A program made the translations under genes and the position numbers. The notes under the pieces are model-generated. The model saw only the letters and a program-made list of their open reading frames with translations, was not told where the DNA came from and made no database searches. DNA of 64,000 nucleotides from NCBI GenBank assembly GCA_964425075.1, contig CAYRKM010000002.1, positions 64,058-128,057 of the forward strand. Direction: 5' to 3'. Source of the DNA: an uncultured Gammaproteobacteria bacterium (GTDB lineage: Bacteria > Patescibacteriota > Microgenomatia > Levybacterales > GWA1-39-11). Shown in pieces: positions 7,809-43,690 of the stretch (the stretch's first letter is position 1; each line of letters begins with the position of its first letter).

Positions 7809-10800
7809 TTGAGTATTATGGAGACTTTACATTCCGGTTTTGATCATCCTCCCGTTGGTCCTGCTCCACATCCTGATTCTTCAGGTAGACCCGTCACCCA
7901 CCCACTTCCTGGCGAGCTAGATGGGGAAGGAATGCTTGATCCAACATCTTTGGATTTCTGGCGAAATCTTCATGCTAACCTTACAGGCTTTATAAGCAAG
8001 AACTATCCCTTTTCAGATTTCCTTAAGAATTTCGATAGTGAGAAAGGGAAAGTGGGTCGCACACATTCAAATGGCGATACAAACGCCACATACGCATACC
8101 TTAATGCAATTTATAAACAGCGTTCATTCTCGCATCCCGGCCATCCTACTCTTGAGCAGCATATCGTCTCGCAATTCACACCTCCTACAGATGACCCCGA
8201 CTTTGCTGAAATTGTTGAAGAAACCCGCTCTCTTATTAGACAGCGTTTTCCAGAACATCAGCTTCCTAGAACGACAAGTCTTGTCAAGCTCCAAGATCCG
8301 GAATTTTGGAGCGAATTTGAGGATGAGCTTTCAAAAACTCCTTCGAGTTCAATATTTGCGGATTTTTTAAAAGGAGGAGGTGGCCTTTCTGAAGACGGTA
8401 GTCAGATGCAGGGAAAGTATCATGATGTCTGGCTTGATATATACGATCCTCGGGGTAGAACTGAATTTAGAAATGCATATAAGGAACAAACAGGAAGAGA
8501 TATAGATACTGATTCTGCAAGAGACGCTCAGAGGATTTTCTTCGAAGTAGCACCAGCACGTATAAAAGCACAGCTTATTAAGAGATATCCGAGAATTTTT
8601 AGTGGATTTGCAGTAGAGTGGGTAGGAAATTCTCAATTACCAAAAGCTGCCCAGGCTGTCATTAACACTCTCGGGTGGTTAGGTGAAGATAACCGAAAAA
8701 AAATACTTGACGTACTTTCGAAATATGTGCATATAGAAACAAGTAGTACTTCGGGTTTTGATTTTTCTGCTGAAGATACTAGCATTATTCTTGGACAAGC
8801 AGCAGAACAATCAGAAGTTGTAGCAGCAGAAGTTGGTCCGCCAACACTCGAAACTATTATTCGAGACGCAACTAATACTTTTCAGCTTGTTGAACAAGAA
8901 AAGTTGGATAATGGGAATTCTGAAAATGAACAACTGTCAAGTGAGCTAACAGCTGCCCTTGAAACATCCTATCTTTACCCAACACTTCGTAATGTTTTAT
9001 ATAAACCTTTCGCACTTTTTTGGTCAAAATATCTGGAGACTCATGGTGGGTCCTCTGTTCCCGAAGATGAAATGAGAAGTTTTCTTGACACATATGCACA
9101 TAATGAAATTGCTCAAACATCTCTATCGCCCGAAGAGCAGCAAATGCTTGAGCGTCTTAAAAAAAATGTTTTTTCCACTATTTTTAGTGAATTTATAGAA
9201 ATTGCAAATTACTCTTCTCAAATTAATCACTTCAGGGAAAGAAGCATCGACGGGAAAGCAAAGCATCTGTTTTTTCATCAGGTTGAGGGAATTAAGCATC
9301 TTGTCGAAAAAGGCGCCGGAATTTTAGCTGATGAACCAGGAACCGGCAAAACAGTGACCCTTGCGCTCGCAGCATTAAATCGAGTTGACCAAAAATTTCG
9401 AGAACCTGGAAAAATAGCAAGGGTGCTAGTTGTTGGATCAAAAACTGTTAATAACAACTGGGAGGAAGAACTTGAAATGCATGTTGCGCCAGGTGATGTC
9501 GATACAGTAAATTTCAATTCTGACGAACTTGCACAGTTAAGCCAGGCAAAACGCCTTGAAATAATGGCACAAAGATTGAAAAATCCTACAGCGGATAGAC
9601 AAGTTTTGCTTGTCAATTACGATCTGTTTCGCAATTCATTTTTTCAGGAACTCCTTCATTCTGCAGGAATTGACTGTACAATAATTGATGAAGCTCATAA
9701 TGTAAAATCGCGTTTTATGGATTCTATTGCTGAGCATAACGACGACACGTCCCATAATGCTCGACTTGCAAAACGCACAACAAATCTTTATAGATTTCTT
9801 CTTTCCAACCCGAATATGGATGTTTATTTGGGTACTAGCACTCCCTTCGTCAAAGAATTAATAGAGCCGCTTATCATGGGTCACCTGGTCGATAGGTGGA
9901 GTCTTCCAATTGACCGGGTTTCAGCTTTAAGGGAGGATCCTGCTGGAGCAAATTTGGCACTTCGTGAAGTAATGATTCGGCGACGAAAGGATGCAATCAG
10001 CGATATCCCCCCAAAAGACACAGACTTTATACCAGTAGACTTAAGCCTACTTAGTGCTGCGGAACGCTCGGAGCTTGTTTCATTGGGCCTTGATATAGAA
10101 AGAGCCGATGAAAGCTCTTTCAGAAGATTTTTTTCCATGTTGTCTATTGAAGCTCAAGCAAAAATGCCCTGGCTTATTGAGAAAATAAACGAGTTAACAT
10201 CTGATGGAAGAAAGGTAGTTGTTTTTACTCCATTCGTTAATGACCAGGAAAGACTTACAGCCTCAATAAGTACGAAGGCTATTGCAAAGCGACTTATTGA
10301 TTCAGGAATTACCTCTGTTGGAGTTCTTGATGGAACTTTAAGTGAAAGCGAAAAACTTGCTGTTCAAAGAGATTTTCATGACCCGAATGGGGTAAGAGTT
10401 TTGGTAGGTAATTATCAAACGGCAGGCGAATCAATTACACTTAATTCGCCTTTCAATAGAGCAACTGAAGTAATTATACTCGTTGCACCAAACACAATAA
10501 GTAGATACATTCAAGCAATTGATAGAGTGCATAGAATCGGACAAGATGAGAAGGTTACTATTCACGTGCCTTTTCTTACGGAAGACCCTATCGCAAGGCC
10601 AGACGGAACATATGACAGACGAATTGTTAGTCGAATGCTTAGAGAACTTTCACTCTTTAATGCTGTTGTAGATGGTTTATTTTTTGTTGAAGCTGCAGAT
10701 TATTACGATGAAATTAGACGGGGAAAAAACGGAAACTCAGAACCAAGAACCGCTCTTGAAAGTGGACAAACAGTTCGTTTGGATACAGAACAGAAGCCTC

Positions 10801-12245
10801 CTGCTGCTACTAAAAAAAGGGGCTTAACTCGGGATGTTTTTGACCAAAACACTGACGGAGCAATAGTACTACCAACAAGCAGAGAGGTAAATTTAAACAG
10901 TATTGGCATAAATCACACACGACATCACCAAATAGACAGAGAGGAAGCTTTGGCAATTACAGATTACTTCGACTCAGTGAGTCAATACCCTCTCCTTACA
11001 GTTGAGCAAGAACGTATAGCATTTAGATATCTAACTGAGGGAAAATCTGTCGCACAACTTCGTGATGATGGAGCATTTCTTGCGGCAAATCCTCGTAGCA
11101 CTGCAAAAATGCTTGCTGTACTTTCCGATAGTCGCTCCGTTAGAGATGTACTTGTTGCCTGTAATTTGAGACTCGTTGCCTCAATAGCAAATAGGTACAA
11201 AGGAAGACTTCCTTACACTGACCTGCTCCAGGAGGGAAATATTGGATTAATTAAGGGAATTGACGATTTTGACCCTGAGCGTGGATTAAAGCTTTCAACA
11301 TATGCAACCTGGTGGATTAAGCAATCAATAAGGCGTGCTATTGCTAATACGTCCCGAACTATTGACTTGCCTGTACACATGCATGAAATGGTCACAAAAA
11401 TGGTGCGTGTTTCAAATGAATTTTTTAGTAAACACCAGCGCTATCCATCTATAGAGGAGCTGGTTTCAGAAGGGTTTACTATATCCCAAGTTAACACAGC
11501 TATGCGCATAGCACGACTTGGAATTTCCAACCCCTCATCTCTTGATAGAACAATAGACGATGATGGTGAAACCACAATCGGGTCATTTGTTTCGGACGAA
11601 GGTGATCTTGAAGAAGAAACTATAGCCGCGATGGAAGAGGCTGAGCAAAGTCATATCGTTGGGCGTGCACTTTTATCTTTAAGCGAACGGGAACAGTTGG
11701 TGCTTACTCTTAGATTCGGGCTTGATGGTTCTGGCACTAGAACCCTTGAACAGGTTGGTAAAGAAATTGGTGTGACAAGAGAAAGAGCACGACAAATAGA
11801 AGTTAGTGCCCTAAAAAGACTTCGAGTAAATACCGGGCTTAGGGAGGCATACGATGGAGATTCCCCAAGTTTGCTTTGGTCAAGGGAAGTCTTGCCTACA
11901 AACGTATTGCCTCTTAGACCAGGGCCAATAGACATTGAGAGGGTCTCAGCAATCTCACAAGCTCAAGAAGTAGAAAGGTTGGAGGAGGAGAAAAACAGTC
12001 TTGAATTTGGCAGACAAGTTGTGGAACAAATAAAAATGGTACCTGATATATGGAATGCTTTAACTGATAGAGAGAAGACGCTTTTGACTCTTTATTTTAA
12101 AGGCACATTTGACCACAACACTACTAAAAGTAGACTTTCAAAAATCTTTGGCATAACCGAACAAGAGCTGTCTGTTTACATCGAGTATTCTGTTGCTTCT
12201 CTAGCCAAACACGTTGGTATGACATCCTCTGAGCTTCCTTCTTGA
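7809..12245 (+). CDS. fusion protein: unknown N-terminal region + SNF2-family ATPase + complete sigma-70 + extra C-terminal region-4-like HTH
   Basis: Single 1478-codon ORF with no internal stop. The track start is TTG at 7809, and an ATG lies at 7818. SNF2 motifs: LADEPGTGKT, IIDEAHNVK, QAIDRVHRIGQ. Sigma motifs: YPLLTVEQE, LLQEGNIGLIKGIDDFD, TYATWWIKQSIRRAI, TIDLPVHMHE, VTRERARQIEVSALKRLR. Confidence 0.85.
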   Translation: MSIMETLHSGFDHPPVGPAPHPDSSGRPVTHPLPGELDGEGMLDPTSLDFWRNLHANLTGFISKNYPFSDFLKNFDSEKGKVGRTHSNGDTNATYAYLNAIYKQRSFSHPGHPTLEQHIVSQFTPPTDDPDFAEIVEETRSLIRQRFPEHQLPRTTSLVKLQDPEFWSEFEDELSKTPSSSIFADFLKGGGGLSEDGSQMQGKYHDVWLDIYDPRGRTEFRNAYKEQTGRDIDTDSARDAQRIFFEVAPARIKAQLIKRYPRIFSGFAVEWVGNSQLPKAAQAVINTLGWLGEDNRKKILDVLSKYVHIETSSTSGFDFSAEDTSIILGQAAEQSEVVAAEVGPPTLETIIRDATNTFQLVEQEKLDNGNSENEQLSSELTAALETSYLYPTLRNVLYKPFALFWSKYLETHGGSSVPEDEMRSFLDTYAHNEIAQTSLSPEEQQMLERLKKNVFSTIFSEFIEIANYSSQINHFRERSIDGKAKHLFFHQVEGIKHLVEKGAGILADEPGTGKTVTLALAALNRVDQKFREPGKIARVLVVGSKTVNNNWEEELEMHVAPGDVDTVNFNSDELAQLSQAKRLEIMAQRLKNPTADRQVLLVNYDLFRNSFFQELLHSAGIDCTIIDEAHNVKSRFMDSIAEHNDDTSHNARLAKRTTNLYRFLLSNPNMDVYLGTSTPFVKELIEPLIMGHLVDRWSLPIDRVSALREDPAGANLALREVMIRRRKDAISDIPPKDTDFIPVDLSLLSAAERSELVSLGLDIERADESSFRRFFSMLSIEAQAKMPWLIEKINELTSDGRKVVVFTPFVNDQERLTASISTKAIAKRLIDSGITSVGVLDGTLSESEKLAVQRDFHDPNGVRVLVGNYQTAGESITLNSPFNRATEVIILVAPNTISRYIQAIDRVHRIGQDEKVTIHVPFLTEDPIARPDGTYDRRIVSRMLRELSLFNAVVDGLFFVEAADYYDEIRRGKNGNSEPRTALESGQTVRLDTEQKPPAATKKRGLTRDVFDQNTDGAIVLPTSREVNLNSIGINHTRHHQIDREEALAITDYFDSVSQYPLLTVEQERIAFRYLTEGKSVAQLRDDGAFLAANPRSTAKMLAVLSDSRSVRDVLVACNLRLVASIANRYKGRLPYTDLLQEGNIGLIKGIDDFDPERGLKLSTYATWWIKQSIRRAIANTSRTIDLPVHMHEMVTKMVRVSNEFFSKHQRYPSIEELVSEGFTISQVNTAMRIARLGISNPSSLDRTIDDDGETTIGSFVSDEGDLEEETIAAMEEAEQSHIVGRALLSLSEREQLVLTLRFGLDGSGTRTLEQVGKEIGVTRERARQIEVSALKRLRVNTGLREAYDGDSPSLLWSREVLPTNVLPLRPGPIDIERVSAISQAQEVERLEEEKNSLEFGRQVVEQIKMVPDIWNALTDREKTLLTLYFKGTFDHNTTKSRLSKIFGITEQELSVYIEYSVASLAKHVGMTSSELPS
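9264..10583 (+). other. SNF2/Swi2-type helicase core (N-lobe plus Helicase_C lobe) inside the fusion ORF
   Basis: aa ~486-925. Walker A LADEPGTGKT (nt 9324-9353), DEAH box IIDEAHNVK (nt 9681-9707), motif III-like LGTSTPF, motif VI QAIDRVHRIGQ (nt 10512-10544). Confidence 0.8.
10938..11828 (+). other. sigma-70 regions 1.2, 2, 3 and 4 inside the fusion ORF
   Basis: aa ~1044-1340. By eye this aligns block for block with RpoD-type sigma factors, including the region 2.4 and 4.2 recognition helices. Confidence 0.85.
12036..12218 (+). other. second region-4-like HTH at the C-terminus of the fusion ORF
   Basis: aa ~1410-1470. LTDREKTLLTLYFKG...SRLSKIFGITEQELSVYIEYSVASLAKHV parallels the upstream LSEREQLVLTLRFGL...LEQVGKEIGVTRERARQIEVSALKRL. 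Confidence 0.55.
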
Positions 12246-19530: not shown

Positions 19531-19628
19531 GAACTCGCAAAGTGAACGAAACTAAAGTGCCTGCGCTGAATGAAGCTGAAGTGCTTGCACTGAGTGAAGC
19601 TGAAGTGCTTGCACTGAGTGAAGCGAAG
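19531..19628 (-). repeat. tRNA-trailer tandem repeats (24-nt unit with AGTGCWWGCACT box)
   Basis: Units GAAGTGCTTGCACTGAGTGAAGCT at 19578-19601 and 19602-19624. A variant unit sits at 19554-19577 and a degenerate unit at 19531-19553. The array abuts the 3' end of tRNA-Ala. Confidence 0.85.
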
Positions 19629-19735: not shown

Positions 19736-19800
19736 GAAGTGCCTGTGCTGAGGAACGTAAAGACGAAGTGCCTGCACTGAGAAACGTAAAGACGAAGTGC
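19736..19800 (-). repeat. 29-nt tandem repeat (2.2 copies) of the same box family, upstream of tRNA-Ala
   Basis: GAAGTGCCTGTGCTGAGGAACGTAAAGAC (19736-19764) and GAAGTGCCTGCACTGAGAAACGTAAAGAC (19765-19793), then GAAGTGC. Confidence 0.8.
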
Positions 19801-21679: not shown

Positions 21680-21754
21680 TTTGCCTGCACTGAACAAAGC
21701 TGAATGTGCTTGCACTGAACAAAGCTGAATGTGCTTGCACTGAGTGAAACGAAG
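21680..21754 (-). repeat. tRNA-trailer tandem repeats (three 25-nt units)
   Basis: Units at 21680-21704, 21705-21729 and 21730-21754 (TGTGCTTGCACTGAACAAAGCTGAA and variants). The array abuts the 3' end of tRNA-Leu(TAA). Confidence 0.85.
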
Positions 21755-30231: not shown

Positions 30232-31074
30232 ATGAAAATACTTTTACTAATTCTTGTTTTATTGCTAATTCCACCCTCCGTTTTTGCACATGGAGGAAAT
30301 GATACCCCCTTTGAAATAAATGGGGAAGAGGTACTAGTTAATCCTGCACAGATAACTCGAAACGACCTTTTTGATCTTCCTCCAGATAGTGATCTTGGCC
30401 CCAAAAATTATTTAGTAAATCAAACTTTAACTTTTTCTATCGATACATCAGAACTACCTTATGAAGACAAGGAAGTCCACGATGCAAATTTTATCTGGGA
30501 CTTTGGAGACGGCACTAAACTTAATAAAAAAGGGGCAACAACTTATACATATACTTACAAAAAACCTGGAACTTATAACCTCGTTGTGTATTCAGATTAC
30601 GCGGGTGACGGAAAGCAACTCGTTAAATCTGTACTTATTAACGTCATTCCAAACCTAAATTACAAGCTTCCAATTGCTAAAATCGCTATCAATGGAATTG
30701 AACTAAAAGAGAACAAATTATCGTTACCACTTGGAAAAAACAACACTTTTGATGGATTAAGCTCAAGTGCCGCCTCATCGAAAATTGTTTCATACGAATG
30801 GGATTTTGATGATGGATCAACAAGCAAAGAGAAGACAGTCACGCACAAATATAAATTACCTCAATATTCTGCTTCTGTTGCGCTCAGAGTAACCGATGAA
30901 AATGGGTTTTATTCAGACGCCGTAGTAAACCTTACAAACAATGGAAGCAACGAACCAAGCATTTTTGATAACTTGGGAATTACTAAGAAGTTATTTGCGA
31001 TAATAATCCTAGGGGTATTAAGTTCTATTTTTCTTGTATTTATTTTAAGAAAAAGGTTATTCAACAAAAGTTAA
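30232..31074 (+). CDS. PKD-repeat surface protein with C-terminal TM anchor
   Basis: Signal peptide. Two PKD-like modules (WDFGDGT...Y.Y..PG.Y.V and WDFDDGSTS...H.Y), then a C-terminal TM helix and a basic tail. Confidence 0.7.
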   Translation: MKILLLILVLLLIPPSVFAHGGNDTPFEINGEEVLVNPAQITRNDLFDLPPDSDLGPKNYLVNQTLTFSIDTSELPYEDKEVHDANFIWDFGDGTKLNKKGATTYTYTYKKPGTYNLVVYSDYAGDGKQLVKSVLINVIPNLNYKLPIAKIAINGIELKENKLSLPLGKNNTFDGLSSSAASSKIVSYEWDFDDGSTSKEKTVTHKYKLPQYSASVALRVTDENGFYSDAVVNLTNNGSNEPSIFDNLGITKKLFAIIILGVLSSIFLVFILRKRLFNKS

Positions 31075-34854: not shown

Positions 34855-34938
34855 GGGCTTGTGCTGAAATTGGTATACAGGCATGCTTGAGGTGCATGTG
34901 TCAGTAATGGCGTGGAGGTTCGAGTCCTCTCAGGCCCA
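34855..34938 (+). tRNA. tRNA-Leu (GAG)
   Basis: Hand-folded class II tRNA. Anticodon arm CATGC-TTGAGGT-GCATG, long variable arm, T-loop TTCGAGT. Confidence 0.9.
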
Positions 34939-34975: not shown

Positions 34976-35029
34976 GAGTCCTCTCAGGCCCACTTCGTCC
35001 GCCTACCGGCGGACTCAGTGCGGGCACTT
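34976..35029 (+). repeat. displaced duplicate of the tRNA-Leu(GAG) 3' end carrying the CTTC...AGTGCGGGCACT trailer
   Basis: The 17 nt GAGTCCTCTCAGGCCCA at 34976-34992 equals 34922-34938, and the trailer-family sequence follows it. A 5'-end fragment TTTGGGCTTGTCCTGA at 35056-35071 matches 34852-34867 at 15 of 16 positions. Confidence 0.8.
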
Positions 35030-35162: not shown

Positions 35163-35186
35163 CAAAGATATGACCAAGTGAGATTT

Positions 35187-35259
35187 GCCAAGATTGCCAA
35201 GTTGGTCAAGGCGCGTGTCTGAAGAACACGTTATCCGGGTTCGATTCCTGGTCTTGGCA
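35187..35259 (+). tRNA. tRNA-Phe (GAA)
   Basis: Hand-folded. Acceptor GCCAAGA/TCTTGGC, anticodon arm CGTGT-CTGAAGA-ACACG, T-loop TTCGATT. Confidence 0.85.
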
Positions 35260-35264
35260 CAAAA

Positions 35265-35519
35265 ATGCAATATTTTGTGTACATTCTTGAATGCAGTGAT
35301 GGTTCGCTTTATACAGGCTATACAACTGATATAGAGCGAAGGGTGAAAGAGCACAACAAAGGAAAGAGCGGAGCTAAGTCTGTACGAGGGAAATTACCTG
35401 CCGAATTAGTTTACTCCGAAACCTTTGTAACTCTTTCAGAGGCATTGAAACGAGAAGCTGAAATCAAAAGTTGGAAGAGATACGAAAAACAAATGTTAAT
35501 AGCGACGAAGCGGGCGTAA
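35265..35519 (+). CDS. GIY-YIG nuclease-superfamily protein (stand-alone URI domain)
   Basis: 84 aa. YVYILECSDGSLYTGYTTDIERRVKEHN is the canonical GIY-YIG block. It starts 6 nt after tRNA-Phe. Confidence 0.85.
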   Translation: MQYFVYILECSDGSLYTGYTTDIERRVKEHNKGKSGAKSVRGKLPAELVYSETFVTLSEALKREAEIKSWKRYEKQMLIATKRA

Positions 35520-35567
35520 GAACCTTTCAATTTCATTGAAAGAACCTTGACCCCGCTCACTACGTTC

Positions 35568-35639
35568 GCGGGGGTAGTTCAGTGGTAGAACGCTTCCTTG
35601 CCAAGGAAGAGGTCGCCGGTTCGAATCCGGTTCCCCGCT
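35568..35639 (+). tRNA. tRNA-Gly (GCC)
   Basis: Hand-folded. Acceptor GCGGGGG/TCCCCGC, anticodon arm CTTCC-TTGCCAA-GGAAG, T-loop TTCGAAT. Confidence 0.9.
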
Positions 35640-35668
35640 CATAAACGATTTCTTTAGTACCTCAAAAC

Positions 35669-36076
35669 CTACATTGCAGCCAAAACTGCACCCATCAAAA
35701 CCAATGTTACCAATTGATAACTTGCATTTATCCAATACAAATTCAATGATTTTCCCTCATAAAGAACTGAGCTAATCATGATTGTTGCAACAAATCCAAG
35801 CCACACCCAAAATCCAACTATAGCACCGCTCATTATGTCCATTGCACCCGCAAATGAAATAATGTTTGAGAGAACATAGGCAGTAATTATAGAGGCAACA
35901 GCTTGTACTCCATAAATCATTGGCATATTAGTCTTTGAACCATTCATTTTTTTTCGACTTATACCAGTTAACTTCATCCATTGTTTACCAAATCCAGCTG
36001 GAGAGTACCAAAAAGTTCCAAGCGCCATAGCAATCACTGCAGAAATAATAACAGCAACCCAATTTGTGTCCATCAT
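35669..36076 (-). CDS. DUF1761-family membrane protein
   Basis: 135 aa, 4 TM helices. The N-terminal WVAVIISAVIAMALGTFWYSP..FGKQW is typical of DUF1761. Confidence 0.65.
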   Translation of the reverse strand: MMDTNWVAVIISAVIAMALGTFWYSPAGFGKQWMKLTGISRKKMNGSKTNMPMIYGVQAVASIITAYVLSNIISFAGAMDIMSGAIVGFWVWLGFVATIMISSVLYEGKSLNLYWINASYQLVTLVLMGAVLAAM

Positions 36077-36207
36077 ATAACTTCACCTCCCCTCACATTT
36101 CAGATACTTTTAAAGTATCACCATAAGAGTTATGAAGTCAAATGCCTAAAACATGAGTAGATACTTCAATTTATGTTAAAAAACAATAACTCTGATATAA
36201 TGCTGCA

Positions 36208-36699
36208 ATGACTGAATTTGACCCTAAAAGAACTGGACCTGACCAAACTCCGCACTCACTTACACCAGAAAAGGTGAAAAGACTATTACCTCAAGGCGAT
36301 AGATTTAGATTTGTGAGTGAAGTTTTAGAGTATGAACCAGGGAAGCGGATCCTTGCAAGATTGGCAGATTTGGAAGGGCCTGAATTTGACTACCTAAAGG
36401 ATCACATGCCCGGAAACCCATTTATTCCAGGAACCATTCTCCAAGAAGCACTGGAACAAGCAGGAAGTTTGATTATAGCTGACTCTATTCCAGAAAATAG
36501 TTTTGCATTTCTCCGAGGAATTGATAAGTTTAGATGGTATGGATTTGTTGGGCTCGATGAGGAAGTGCTACTTGAAGCCAAAATAATCACGTTGAGATCC
36601 AATGCCGGGAAGGCTTCGCTAACAGCAACGAGGAGTGGTGAAATTGTGGCTTCAGGGCGAGTAATATTTGGTATTGGAGAAAAACCTCAGCTTGCTTAA
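36208..36699 (+). CDS. FabZ/FabA-like hotdog-fold dehydratase
   Basis: LPQGDRFRFVSEV and DHMPGNPFIPGTILQEALEQAG match the FabZ active-site region pattern (H...P..PG....E). TGATATAAT ends 6 nt before the ATG. Confidence 0.7.
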   Translation: MTEFDPKRTGPDQTPHSLTPEKVKRLLPQGDRFRFVSEVLEYEPGKRILARLADLEGPEFDYLKDHMPGNPFIPGTILQEALEQAGSLIIADSIPENSFAFLRGIDKFRWYGFVGLDEEVLLEAKIITLRSNAGKASLTATRSGEIVASGRVIFGIGEKPQLA

Positions 36700-36803
36700 G
36701 ACTTTTTTTAACATATTTGACCTTAAGTCTTCTAGACTGAGATTTTCAACAAAATCTTGCTACATAATTTTTTTCTAAGGATTAAAAATAAAGCCTATAA
36801 TAC

Positions 36804-36832
36804 TTGACATTTTGAACATCTCGTGCTAATAT
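36804..36832 (+). promoter_or_regulatory. near-consensus sigma-70 promoter for the G+C-rich RNA island
   Basis: TTGACA (36804-36809), a 17-nt spacer ending in TGC, then TAATAT (36827-36832), giving an extended -10. Confidence 0.65.
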
Positions 36833-36838
36833 GCGCCT

Positions 36839-37310
36839 ATTCTGACTGATGGAAGTTTGAAGTGGTCAGCACTTATGTGTCTGAGCAGGGAGAACCTCCA
36901 AAGGTCTAGGAAGGACGGTTCGTTGAAACAGGTGGATAGCTAGCCGGCTTCGGCCGGATCCGGTGAAGGACCGGAAATGCAGCATGCTTGTGGAAGTCGG
37001 TCCCGGAAGGGATGACAACCACGCAGCCCGGGTGAAACCGGGTACGGAAAGGAGCAAGCCACATATGCTTGCGACCAGCACCGGACGGATGCTAAAGTTC
37101 GACGCGATCGACACCGCCGACCCGAACGACGTCATCGTCGGCTACTCGCCCACCCCGGATGGGGTCAACGGCACGTAGCTCGCCGCGACCGTCCCGAACG
37201 CTGCTAGACCGCTAGCCTAGAGAGGGAAACCTTTCTTTGCTAGCCAAAGCTAGCGCCACGTTCACCGCCCCCCGTCTTGGCACTGCCAAGTCGGGGGGCA
37301 ACTCTTTTCC
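36839..37310 (+). ncRNA. unclassified G+C-rich, hairpin-dense RNA candidate (~470 nt)
   Basis: It lies between a consensus promoter and a terminator. At least 9 local hairpins are present, including C(UUCG)G at 36944-36957, a GGAA loop at 37001-37012, a GUGAAA loop at 37027-37042 and a GAAA loop at 37221-37234. Long-range complementarity links 36903-36918 with 37189-37210. No downstream same-strand gene follows. Confidence 0.55.
37268..37310 (+). terminator. intrinsic-terminator-like hairpin ending the G+C-rich island
   Basis: CCCCCCGTCTTGGC/GCCAAGTCGGGGGG stem (13 bp, 1 mismatch, 3-nt loop), followed by a CTCTTTTCC T-tract. Confidence 0.55.
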
Positions 37311-37350
37311 TCTCCAAAAAAAATTCTTGAGAAATTAAATTAGAGACAAT

Positions 37351-37491
37351 GATGTGCCTGCACTGTGCAAGAAGTGTTACGTTGTGAAACAAAGTCTCGA
37401 AGTGCTTTCATCGATCAAGAAGTGCTTGCGCTGAACGAAATGGAAGCCTGCACTGAATGAAGTTGAGGTGCTTGCACTGAACGTAGTGAAG
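37351..37491 (-). repeat. tRNA-trailer repeat array downstream of tRNA-Leu(CAG)
   Basis: On the minus strand it reads CTTCACTACGTTCAGTGCAAGCACCTCAACTTCATTCAGTGCAGGC..., with 4-5 boxes of the AGTGCWWGCACT family that degenerate with distance. Confidence 0.8.
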
Positions 37492-37574
37492 TGCCCGAAA
37501 AAGGAGTCGAACCTTCACACCCATAAGGGCACAGCGTTCTGAACACTGCGTGTCTACCATTCCACCATTCGGGC
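37492..37574 (-). tRNA. tRNA-Leu (CAG)
   Basis: Hand-folded class II tRNA. Anticodon arm CAGTG-TTCAGAA-CGCTG, long variable arm, T-loop TTCGACT. Confidence 0.9.
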
Positions 37575-37718
37575 AACAAACATATTGTAACAGAGACAAT
37601 TTATATCATAATTACTCAATTTCAAAGAAAAAAATTTGCCTGTAAATATTACCTTTAGACTATCTTATCAATCCAAACAGCACTTGACCAGAATTTTTTT
37701 TTATGGTTCTATAGAAAG

Positions 37719-38351
37719 ATGCAAGACAGGGTAAACACTAATTCCTCTAATTTTGAAAGCAAAAGCAATTCATCTCTTAAAAAGGTTTTGTTAGTAAGCA
37801 TTTATTTATCAGCCATTCCAATATTTATCGTTTTTGTAATGCTGTTTTCTCTTTACGCAAAGTACGACGTCAATGGATATATTTCTCGTCAGAATATTTC
37901 CCTTAATTACCGAGCTTTACCTGAAAATAGTAATAATAGTACTGTTTCTCTTGAAGCAGACGACGCTAGAATTCAAGCTCTCGAGGAGTTATTTGATACT
38001 TATGACTCACCTCTAGTTGGTCATGCAGCAAAAATAGTAGAAGAGGCTGATAAGCACAATATAGACTATAGACTTTTACCCTCAATCGCTATGCAAGAAA
38101 GCACTTTGTGTAAAAAAATTATAAAAGACTCTCATAATTGCTGGGGTTTTGGAATTTATGGAGGAAAAGTAACAAAATTTGATAACTATAATGAGGCAAT
38201 AGAAACTGTAACAAGAACATTATCCAAAAAATATGTTCAAGCTGGACTTGAAGAACCACATGAAATTGTAGAGAAATATACGCCATCTGATGACGGAAAA
38301 TGGGCAAATGTAGTCAATATGATGATGGAAACTATCAAAAACTCACTTTAA
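37719..38351 (+). CDS. membrane-anchored lysozyme-superfamily peptidoglycan hydrolase-like protein (paralog 1)
   Basis: 210 aa, N-terminal TM. IVEEADKHNIDYRLLPSIAMQEST...HNCWGFG resembles the SLT/glucosaminidase catalytic-Glu region. It is a paralog of the next CDS. Confidence 0.55.
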   Translation: MQDRVNTNSSNFESKSNSSLKKVLLVSIYLSAIPIFIVFVMLFSLYAKYDVNGYISRQNISLNYRALPENSNNSTVSLEADDARIQALEELFDTYDSPLVGHAAKIVEEADKHNIDYRLLPSIAMQESTLCKKIIKDSHNCWGFGIYGGKVTKFDNYNEAIETVTRTLSKKYVQAGLEEPHEIVEKYTPSDDGKWANVVNMMMETIKNSL

Positions 38352-38538: not shown

Positions 38539-39129
38539 ATGCAACTTATAAAGGTTACATTAAATATGAAAAGATATATTTTACCTATTATACTTTTGGC
38601 TTTTGCCAACGCAGCTATGCCATGGGCCCTTATGCCTAGGGTGTATCAAGCCTACGCGAAAGATACTGCATATACAAATGCGGAACTTTCTGTGGCTTTA
38701 AAAAATACTTCAGGAAATGACATGCGTGTTGATGCTTTGAGAATTATTTTTGAAAAGCGCAACTCTCCTTTAGTGCCTTATGCTAAGGCATATGTAGAAC
38801 TTGCTGATAAGCACGGTGTTGACTGGAAACTTTTACCTGCTATTTCAGGTCTTGAATCCTCATTTGGTATTCATTTAATGCCTGGCTCCCACAATGGTTA
38901 TGGGTGGGGTGGTGGACATATCTACTTCTCGTCTTGGGAAGAGGGTATTGATACTATTAACAAGGCTCTTGCTGAAAAGTATTATGGCCGTGGGGCAAAT
39001 ACTGTATGGAAAATTGGTCCTATTTATGCTGAGTCGCCTACTTGGGCTGTGAGAGTAAATAGCTTTATGGAGCAAATTGAGGCCGAGCATAACAAATTGC
39101 AAAACTCTAAGCTTGCCTTGACTATTTAA
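38539..39129 (+). CDS. secreted lysozyme-superfamily peptidoglycan hydrolase-like protein (paralog 2)
   Basis: YVELADKHGVDWKLLPAISGLESSFG...HNGYGWGG parallels paralog 1. The start is probably the ATG at 38566 (MKRYILPIILLAFANA signal peptide). Confidence 0.55.
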   Translation: MQLIKVTLNMKRYILPIILLAFANAAMPWALMPRVYQAYAKDTAYTNAELSVALKNTSGNDMRVDALRIIFEKRNSPLVPYAKAYVELADKHGVDWKLLPAISGLESSFGIHLMPGSHNGYGWGGGHIYFSSWEEGIDTINKALAEKYYGRGANTVWKIGPIYAESPTWAVRVNSFMEQIEAEHNKLQNSKLALTI

Positions 39130-39170
39130 GGATAGCCTCAAACCCTCTTTTAGAGTATAATTGCCATATT

Positions 39171-39253
39171 GCCCGAGTGGTGAAATGGTATACACGCTAG
39201 TTTTAGGAACTAGTACCCTTACAGGTGTGGAGGTTCGAGTCCTCTCTCGGGCA
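39171..39253 (+). tRNA. tRNA-Leu (TAG)
   Basis: Hand-folded class II tRNA. Anticodon arm CTAGT-TTTAGGA-ACTAG, long variable arm, T-loop TTCGAGT. Confidence 0.9.
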
Positions 39254-39352
39254 CTTCACTACGTTCAGTGCAAGCACCTCAACTTCATTCAGTGCAGGCT
39301 TCCATTTCGTTCAGTGCAAGTACTTCGGGGCCTTGTTTCTCAGCGCTTGCAC
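39254..39352 (+). repeat. tRNA-trailer repeat array downstream of tRNA-Leu(TAG)
   Basis: The first 72 nt (39254-39325) match the reverse complement of 37420-37491 at all but 2 positions. Four boxes of the AGTGCWWGCACT family are present. Confidence 0.85.
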
Positions 39353-43623: not shown

Positions 43624-43690
43624 CTTCACTTCGTTCAGTGCAGGCACTTCAGTTTCGTTCAGCACGGGTACTTCGTTACACTCAGCACAG
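43624..43690 (+). repeat. tRNA-trailer repeat array
   Basis: CTTCACTTCGTTCAGTGCAGGCACTTCAGTTTCGTTCAGCACGGGTACTTCGTTACACTCAGCACAGACAC, i.e. three progressively degenerate units. Confidence 0.8.

Follow-up and report, generated by a model that had tools for sequence, protein, structure and literature searches.

The locus

We analyzed a 64-kb stretch of contig CAYRKM010000002.1 (assembly GCA_964425075.1), referred to here as the window, which probably derives from a Levybacteria-like genome of the Candidate Phyla Radiation (CPR), given that a homolog of a neighboring protein carries the source name "Candidatus Levybacteria bacterium". The subject of this report is a G+C-rich island of about 460 bases that lies beside a tRNA-Leu(CAG) gene. 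The window has a G+C content of about 38% and carries 14 tRNA genes together with housekeeping genes, including those for a short trigger factor, a DUF5660 protein, aminoacyl-tRNA synthetases, penicillin-binding proteins, and PilM. Positions 36876-37332 (59% G+C) form the sole G+C-rich segment longer than 135 nucleotides (nt) across the 64 kb. Composition breaks sharply at the island, where the local G+C content is 60-70% versus 38% for the host, and the other G+C peaks of the window mostly correspond to tRNAs. On the left, the island follows a gene for a hotdog-fold (FabA-like) protein that ends at 36699; on the right, repeat units separate it from the tRNA gene. The features of the locus, including an open reading frame (ORF) of 37 codons and a Shine-Dalgarno (SD)-like motif, are the following.

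36804-36832, + strand: promoter-like site, TTGACA and TAATAT separated by 17 nt, with TG ahead of the -10 element (extended -10)
36855-36886, strand unassigned: possible degenerate tRNA-trailer repeat unit, left of the island (weak evidence)
36888-37094, + strand: structured 5' domain with G>C skew (+0.2 to +0.33) and no codon periodicity (p = 0.29)
36944-36957, 36959-36975, 37001-37012, and 37026-37043, + strand: hairpins of the 5' domain with cUUCGg, GAAGG, GGAA, and GUGAAA loops, respectively
36913-36919 with 37188-37194, + strand: long-range helix GGACGGU/ACCGUCC of 7 bp, pair probability 0.97-0.996
37048-37054, + strand: SD-like motif AAAGGAG, 10 nt ahead of the ATG
37051-37076, + strand: hairpin GG.GCAAGC / GCUUGC..CC, pair probabilities 0.78-0.99, delta G -10.3 kcal/mol
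37065-37178, + strand: 37-codon ORF from ATG to TAG (stop codon at 37176-37178)
37095-37178, + strand: coding-like period-3 stretch with G or C at 26/27 third positions, and a weaker, non-significant continuation to ~37205
37196-37264, + strand: long imperfect hairpin with a GAAA tetraloop and three GCUAGC palindromes, z = -6.6, pair probabilities 0.99
37267-37299, + strand: terminator-like G+C hairpin of 14 bp (P = 0.998), followed by the U-rich AACUCUUUUCCUCUCC, the whole element extending to 37312
37351-37490, - strand: tRNA-trailer repeat array with units of ~22-24 nt, between the island and the tRNA gene
37491-37574, - strand: tRNA-Leu(CAG), with the island downstream of its 3' end; the same tRNA occurs, island-free, in relatives

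The promoter-like site matches 10 of 12 consensus positions and predicts an RNA start near 36840; it is a consensus match only. For the possible repeat unit on the left, a repeat comparison gives 75% identity between 36849-36864 and 37440-37455, and the array of a relative (contig L002) was also compared by eye. If this left-hand copy is real, the island would possibly sit within the repeat array.

Codon periodicity

The ORF at 37065-37178 translates as MLATSTGRMLKFDAIDTADPNDVIVGYSPTPDGVNGT. A preliminary description of the DNA had pointed out the ORF with its 37-residue translation, its ATG (37065) and its TAG (37176), the preceding AAAGGAG motif (37048-37054), and a run of codons from the eleventh onward in which 26 of 27 third positions are G or C, and all of these are correct. 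It is also true, as claimed there, that the first and second positions lack a similar bias: over codons 11-37, G or C occupies 16 of 27 first and 12 of 27 second positions. Counting from 37095, 34 of 35 in-phase positions are G or C. When 20,000 mononucleotide shuffles of the island are each scored by their maximum over frames and positions, a single one attains this count; when only the G+C-richest part is shuffled, none of 20,000 does. The highest in-phase count in the rest of the window is 31. A chi-square test of base versus codon position yields p = 2e-6 for 37095-37205; for the two neighboring parts of the island the values are 0.29 and 0.57. The base counts by codon position over the 35 codons of 37095-37199 are:

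Position 1: G 16, A 10, C 5, T 4
Position 2: G 3, A 11, C 13, T 8
Position 3: G 10, A 0, C 24, T 1

The stretch follows a purine-any base-pyrimidine (RNY) pattern with C at the third position (C3) in the + frame only: position 1 is rich in G and A, and position 3 has far more C than G and no A. The 21 adenines of 37095-37205 are distributed 10, 11, and 0 over the three codon positions. The codons used are favorites of high-G+C organisms (GAC, ATC, ACC, GTC, GGC, CCG, and AAC), and G+C at third positions (GC3) is 0.96, versus 0.28 in host genes (the values at positions 1, 2, and 3 of the host's long ORFs are 0.49, 0.36, and 0.28). The high-G+C codon signature reported in the preliminary description is therefore present, with its RNY/C3 pattern confined to the + frame and set against the low GC3 of the host, and the periodicity is confirmed as genuine, of coding type, and far beyond chance. 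The continuation of the bias past the stop codon is less secure: third positions are indeed G or C in 7 of 9 codons, but this is insignificant on its own in sequence of 62% G+C. The start of the ORF and that of the signal do not coincide, as the periodicity sets in about 10 codons (30 nt) after the ATG and GC3 is lower over the first 10 codons.

Two other sources of the pattern were considered and rejected. Coding on the minus strand would give an atypical arrangement (T-rich position 1, G>C at position 3), and that frame contains a stop codon. A tandem 9-nt repeat is not supported by autocorrelation at lag 9 (p = 0.10), and Tandem Repeats Finder reports none. Evidence for an internal duplication of 72 nt is weak (21 nt matching at 76%, p = 0.014).

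RNA structure

The minimum free energy (MFE) of the whole island, relative to shuffles, has z = -6.7 on the + strand versus -4.0 on the - strand. The 5' core (36935-37076) folds with z = -3.7 and the 3' domain (37196-37300) with z = -8.45, or -6.6 after removal of the last hairpin. For the periodic stretch the values are z = -0.03 (+) and 0.0 (-), and remain ~0 against codon-preserving shuffles. The island is a composite, with its folding excess coming entirely from the flanks and none from the periodic stretch; this agrees with the contrast drawn earlier between that stretch and the structural RNA around it (z = -0.03 versus -3.7 and -8.5). The two parts also differ in base content, the periodic part being C-rich versus the G-rich 5' domain. 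The long-range helix encloses the 5' core and the periodic stretch together. The U tract behind the terminator-like hairpin is too weak for a consensus terminator scan.

Four of the window's nine GCTAGC palindromes fall within the island (36939, 37211, 37239, and 37249). Three of these form the hairpin at 37196-37264; the fourth is unpaired within the 5' domain and could make a long-range or intermolecular contact.

These properties raise the question of whether the island is a resident structured non-coding RNA of the lineage, in which the period-3 signal is incidental or acts at the RNA level, for example as a C-rich, unfolded platform for binding that the long-range helix encloses. The strand bias of the folding energy fits this idea, as do loops of the UUCG and GNRA types (cUUCGg, GGAA, GAAA, and GUGAAA) that are restricted to the + strand, the promoter-like site, the terminator-like hairpin, and a helix of P > 0.97 around the periodic stretch. 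Moreover, G+C-rich RNA genes are usual in A+T-rich genomes, and tRNAs account for most other peaks here. Yet the periodic stretch itself is unstructured, and no known RNA constraint yields 34 of 35 in-phase G/C positions with an RNY pattern. Taken together with the comparisons to relatives and to RNA families given below, we consider a resident RNA unlikely.

The same site in relatives and in an independent assembly

The protein encoded by the hotdog gene has a single relative at 79% identity among 5.8 billion protein clusters. The contig that encodes it (L002) carries the hotdog gene, ~130 nt, a tandem array of 23-nt units, and tRNA-Leu, with no island. The glucosaminidase-like protein encoded on the other side has hundreds of relatives. 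Five contigs (L004, L005, L006, L009, and L010; 61-75% identity) keep the order DUF1761, tRNA-Leu(CAG) on the - strand, and glucosaminidase-like gene; none of the five has a G+C-rich segment longer than ~115 nt or an nhmmer or BLAST match to the island. An nhmmer search with the island over 50 kb of the relatives' flanks also returns nothing. Six relatives with neighbor proteins of 61-79% identity (L002, L004, L005, L006, L009, and L010) share this gene order and lack the island at the same site. Examination of sister genomes had been proposed in the preliminary description, and the result favors acquisition; it also stands against a resident RNA of the lineage. The interval between the DUF1761 gene and the tRNA gene contains the hotdog (FabA-like) gene, an IMP cyclohydrolase gene, a 68-residue ORF, or nothing, depending on the genome. 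Because its content differs from genome to genome, the locus is a variable spot.

The sharp compositional break could also be produced by a chimeric assembly or by contaminating high-G+C reads, a concern raised at the outset. Over 35183-37460, an interval that includes both island borders, the window is matched by a separately assembled Logan contig (L001, run SRR14271365); the two are identical except for three differences at 35185-35202, where the assemblies part. A second Logan contig (L011) extends across the tRNA gene. Since an independent contig is identical across both borders, the island is not a chimeric join, and promoter, leader, and terminator form one coherent unit; an artifact of this kind is scarcely credible. 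To the left of 35183, just before tRNA-Phe, L001 departs from the window (positions 1-720 of L001) and carries a different gene of 215 codons, which reflects either strain variation or a different route of assembly through the tRNA cluster.

Translation signals

The hairpin at 37054-37072 described earlier is real, with a pair probability of 0.99 (delta G -10.3 kcal/mol). The accompanying proposal that it sequesters the SD motif and the AUG holds in part: the SD guanines at 37051, 37052, and 37054 and the G of the AUG are paired, but the other two bases of the start codon, A and U, are in the loop. The only candidate for a switch, an alternative stem between 36986-36991 and 37054-37059, has a probability of 0.0 in the ensemble.

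In the host, GGAG or GAGG occurs within 25 nt of the start in 2 of 49 long ORFs, both badly spaced. Many of the 49 have a TATAAT box 5-10 nt ahead of the ATG. The position of these boxes and the near-absence of SD motifs suggest that leaderless or SD-independent initiation is widespread in this organism. With such motifs in only 2 of 49 host ORFs, AAAGGAG is not a host-type signal; it was either carried over from an SD-using donor or arose by chance.

One could still envision a functional small-protein gene or dual-function RNA, whose leader gates a 37-residue peptide through the SD/AUG hairpin and whose third positions are held at G or C by selection. The spacing of the SD-like motif, the stable pairing of its guanines and of the AUG G, the island's own promoter and terminator-like hairpin, and a coding-type pattern in exactly the frame of the ORF are all as expected of such a gene, and gene starts commonly show a lower GC3, as codons 1-10 do here. 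However, SD sites precede only 2 of 49 host genes, codon preference runs opposite to that of host genes, the periodicity sets in 30 nt past the ATG, the switch pairing has zero probability, and no homologous peptide is found (1.84 billion representative proteins and six-frame seed scans). As host genes are SD-less and the periodic signal misses the ORF start, a working, host-adapted peptide gene is doubtful, and the small peptide under structural control that the preliminary description entertained is weakened accordingly. We judge this explanation improbable, on a par with a resident RNA.

The closest comparisons for such a gene are structured messenger RNAs with short ORFs and dual-function small RNAs, namely hok-type type I toxin mRNAs, SgrS/SgrT, and RNAIII/hld. 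The island resembles them in its predicted RNA of ~470 nt, long-range helix, short internal ORF, SD and AUG within a hairpin, and own predicted promoter and terminator. It differs in that the peptide is acidic and hydrophilic rather than a membrane toxin, no antisense partner is seen, the host does not use SD-led initiation, the codon usage is foreign, and there is no family-level similarity.

Searches for homologs and a donor

A word-indexed search of 5.8 billion proteins with the 71-residue extended ORF gives no match, and Pfam returns nothing for the ORF peptide at E-values up to 10. Against 1.84 billion representative proteins, phmmer lists five, with E-values down to 3.6e-10, each of them a long protein built of tandem repeats (PKD or FN3 arrays, among others). 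This significance is artifactual, the score being summed over up to 25 repeats; the best single domain reaches 14 bits (E = 4e3). The island peptide contains a PKD-like motif, FDAxDxxDPxxxIVxY. A fragment of a PKD domain (PF00801 / PF18911) is nevertheless unsupported, as the domain-profile match is not significant: a PKD profile applied post hoc scores 13.7 bits, versus a maximum of 11.1 in 5000 composition-preserving shuffles, and is insignificant after correction for the number of families. In a PDB search, an unrelated HAD-type hydrolase matches slightly more weakly (10.4 bits for the matched stretch). The resemblance to PKD domains may serve as a lead only. The window itself encodes a secreted 280-residue protein with two PKD domains (30232-31074, + strand), which matches the island peptide weakly (E = 0.06 in a single comparison) and in the same register as the PKD matches.

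Peptide-seed scans, using six 8-residue seeds each and tolerating third-position changes, covered 185,579 species genomes, JGI metagenomes (two frames), and IMG/VR, and reveal no relative. The single genome match, in a Phycisphaerales metagenome-assembled genome (L003), was dismissed as a chance exact 8-residue seed in high-G+C, protein-coding-like sequence; it lies mostly over the non-periodic part of the query and matches no RNA family. DNA pattern scans of viral contigs yield nothing. BLAST against phages and plasmids stays at chance level, with E-values of ~0.4-0.5 for DNA and 9 for protein, and the chance DNA matches are all in high-G+C organisms. The seed scans and DNA searches reach fairly close relatives only, and more distant homologs may have escaped them. 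A host or partner organism as the source, as put forward in the preliminary description, stays conjecture, with no donor and no protein-level similarity found in these collections.

RNA families and mobile elements

With Rfam 15 covariance models, only tRNAs pass the gathering score in the window, and no family is assigned to the island, which also speaks against a resident RNA. The best match within it is DUF3800-X (RF02984), at 17.7 bits versus a gathering score of 38.2 (E = 0.6-1.3). The match covers 36986-37059 at full length and includes several conserved purine-rich motifs, but the outer stem required by the model has zero probability in the island fold, and no DUF3800 gene is present among the scanned ORFs of the window. 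RNase P RNA, transfer-messenger RNA (tmRNA), signal recognition particle (SRP) RNA, T-box, and group I intron were considered from a likeness of short motifs judged by eye and from a 2026 paper on introns in Patescibacteria tRNA genes, and none has a covariance-model match even at E = 10 with the island alone. There are no tRNA halves at the island ends. RNase P RNA, tmRNA, SRP RNA, 6S RNA, riboswitches, group I and II introns, HEARO, OLE, ROOL, GOLLD, and raiA all fall below the gathering score. For tmRNA, ARAGORN and Rfam are both negative, and the reading frame ends in VNGT, not in a hydrophobic tag.

Pfam scans covered 45 of the 48 window ORFs of at least 150 residues. A remnant of a miniature inverted-repeat transposable element or insertion sequence was rejected, the sole "terminal inverted repeat" (36692-36709 / 37317-37334) consisting of A/T runs and overlapping the conserved end of the neighboring gene. 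The hairpin at 37196-37264 is, by eye, a poor fit to the R''/R' consensus of an integron attC site, and an IscB/TnpB guide-RNA remnant was discarded in view of the missing HEARO match and the lack of a fitting protein N-terminus.

Diversity-generating retroelements are common in CPR bacteria, and the island could hold the template RNA of one (or of a similar system), that is, an untranslated copy of a target gene end whose reverse transcriptase and target lie outside the window. A template repeat would explain a coding-like stretch of ~85-110 nt, which is a typical size, that is not bounded by its ORF, has its 21 adenines at codon positions 1 and 2 and none at 3, and is embedded between structured RNA on both sides. 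The island departs from such systems in that the 64-kb window contains no variable repeat: a BLAST comparison of the island to the rest of the window, even with 7-nt words, gives chance matches only and no second copy of the periodic stretch. In addition, no reverse transcriptase is found among the scanned ORFs, the translation is unlike C-type-lectin variable regions, and the known systems are compact. With neither a second copy nor a reverse transcriptase in the window, a diversity-generating retroelement is unsupported, and we regard it as very unlikely.

tRNA-associated repeats and other features of the window

The tRNA-trailer repeats are based on a 17-nt unit, YTCAGTGCAAGCACTTC, of which 11 copies occur at no more than 3 mismatches, versus 0.18 expected. 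Their locations in the window are 19554-19618, 19765-19781, 21703-21744, 37419-37481, 39264-39326, and 43634-43650; the array of contig L002 is at 2290-2395. Of the 11 copies, ten directly follow a tRNA gene on its own strand (Ala, three Leu, and Val), and the other is immediately upstream of tRNA-Ala. The units are often arranged in short tandem arrays of 22-24 nt, and the relative has its 23-nt tandem array at the same tRNA-Leu. They may serve in trailer processing or as terminators, or may be scars of integration. A second copy of the tRNA-Leu(GAG) 3' end, GAGTCCTCTCAGGCCCAC, occurs 57 nt downstream of the gene (34920-34937 and 34977-34995) and looks like the attachment-site scar of an integrating element. 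The repeat arrays and this duplicated tRNA 3' end suggest that tRNA 3' flanks are recombination hot spots. An inverted duplication of 158 nt with 86% identity (37419-37576 and 39169-39326) comprises tRNA-Leu(CAG), tRNA-Leu(TAG), and trailer repeats, and brackets two paralogous glucosaminidase-like genes (37719-38351 and 38539-39129). Elsewhere, the + strand at 7809-12245 encodes an unusual 1478-residue fusion of an SNF2-type helicase domain with sigma-70 regions 2, 3, and 4.

Origin of the island

We tentatively favor, as the simplest account of the results and with confidence a little short of even, the explanation that 36888-37312 is a recently acquired foreign, high-G+C small transcription unit or coding relic beside tRNA-Leu(CAG) in this Levybacteria-like CPR genome. 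A foreign piece would have been inserted into the variable spot downstream of the tRNA gene, bringing with it a structured leader and a short ORF with SD motif and ATG, whose stop codon is followed first by the long hairpin and then by the terminator-like one. The last ~27 codons of the ORF would retain donor-type codon usage that has not decayed toward host composition, and the period-3 G/C signal would be the trace of a coding ancestry, owed neither to RNA structure nor to host-adapted translation. Two strong hairpins, the second with a U-rich tail, come after the stop codon and make this part resemble the 3' end of a gene; stop codon and hairpins may be the original gene's own 3' end and the structured 5' part its leader. 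The transcript of ~470 nt would probably start at the adjacent sigma-70-type promoter, and translation of the ORF is doubtful. A recent arrival is argued by third positions that are nearly saturated with G or C while host GC3 is 0.28, and by the closest relative lacking the island. The data show the periodicity, the composite structure, the absence from relatives, and a join that is not chimeric; foreign origin, recency, transcription, and loss of coding function are all points that we infer. The foreign high-G+C interpretation of the preliminary description is upheld to the extent that the stretch is coding-like, foreign-looking, and outside the RNA structure; a donor and a peptide did not emerge.

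The proposed islet shares several traits with horizontally acquired islets next to tRNA genes: atypical composition (60-70% versus 38% G+C and GC3 of 0.96 versus 0.28), a site downstream of a tRNA 3' end, absence from syntenic relatives, and variable content of the locus. It differs from them in being only ~460 bp long, in lacking an integrase, a clearly duplicated tRNA 3' end, and an identifiable donor, and in consisting mostly of structured RNA rather than genes.

Several observations weigh against a recent acquisition. The 45 scanned ORFs of the 64-kb window include no integrase, transposase, or reverse transcriptase, and all of them look like housekeeping genes. No clear target-site duplication or duplicated tRNA 3' end flanks the island, whose two sides share only trailer repeat units that are common at many tRNA genes. 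No donor or relative is found at the protein or DNA level across the collections searched; a recent transfer from a sampled lineage would be expected to appear in the peptide-seed scans, so their silence counts here. Six relatives without a tree do not suffice to distinguish formally between a single gain and a single loss. The A+T-rich, host-like, and well-placed promoter is more in keeping with a functional RNA gene of the resident genome than with a random fragment. The strong folding of the flanks, with their UUCG and GNRA loops, suggests selection for a function at the RNA level that acquisition leaves unexplained, and promoter and flank structure together hint that the transcript is active in some way in its present host.

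A more novel version of the foreign-origin idea can also be put forward. The CPR organism, as an episymbiont, may have captured an expressed unit from a high-G+C partner, from its host, or from the latter's mobile DNA, and leader, short ORF, and terminator would now be transcribed from the episymbiont's own promoter as a new structured RNA; alternatively, the stretch may be a retroelement-like template or guide whose partner lies outside the window. We hold this version to be distinctly unlikely, if less so than a diversity-generating retroelement proper.

Implications

The island is a real anomaly, found in one genome, and is best classed as either a small horizontally acquired islet or an orphan RNA bearing a short ORF. 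As a single-genome orphan, its general importance is limited for now. If resident and functional, it would be an orphan structured RNA of ~470 nt without an Rfam family. If the captured-unit version is true, it would represent an unusually young RNA gene, non-coding or dual-function, that arose out of foreign coding DNA. If the origin is foreign, the island would show that a reduced, A+T-rich CPR genome has recently received DNA from a high-G+C organism, and would provide a clean case of coding DNA with structured flanks turning into a host-transcribed RNA. Its donor could then reveal the organism with which an uncultured episymbiont is physically associated, a link that as a rule is very difficult to demonstrate.

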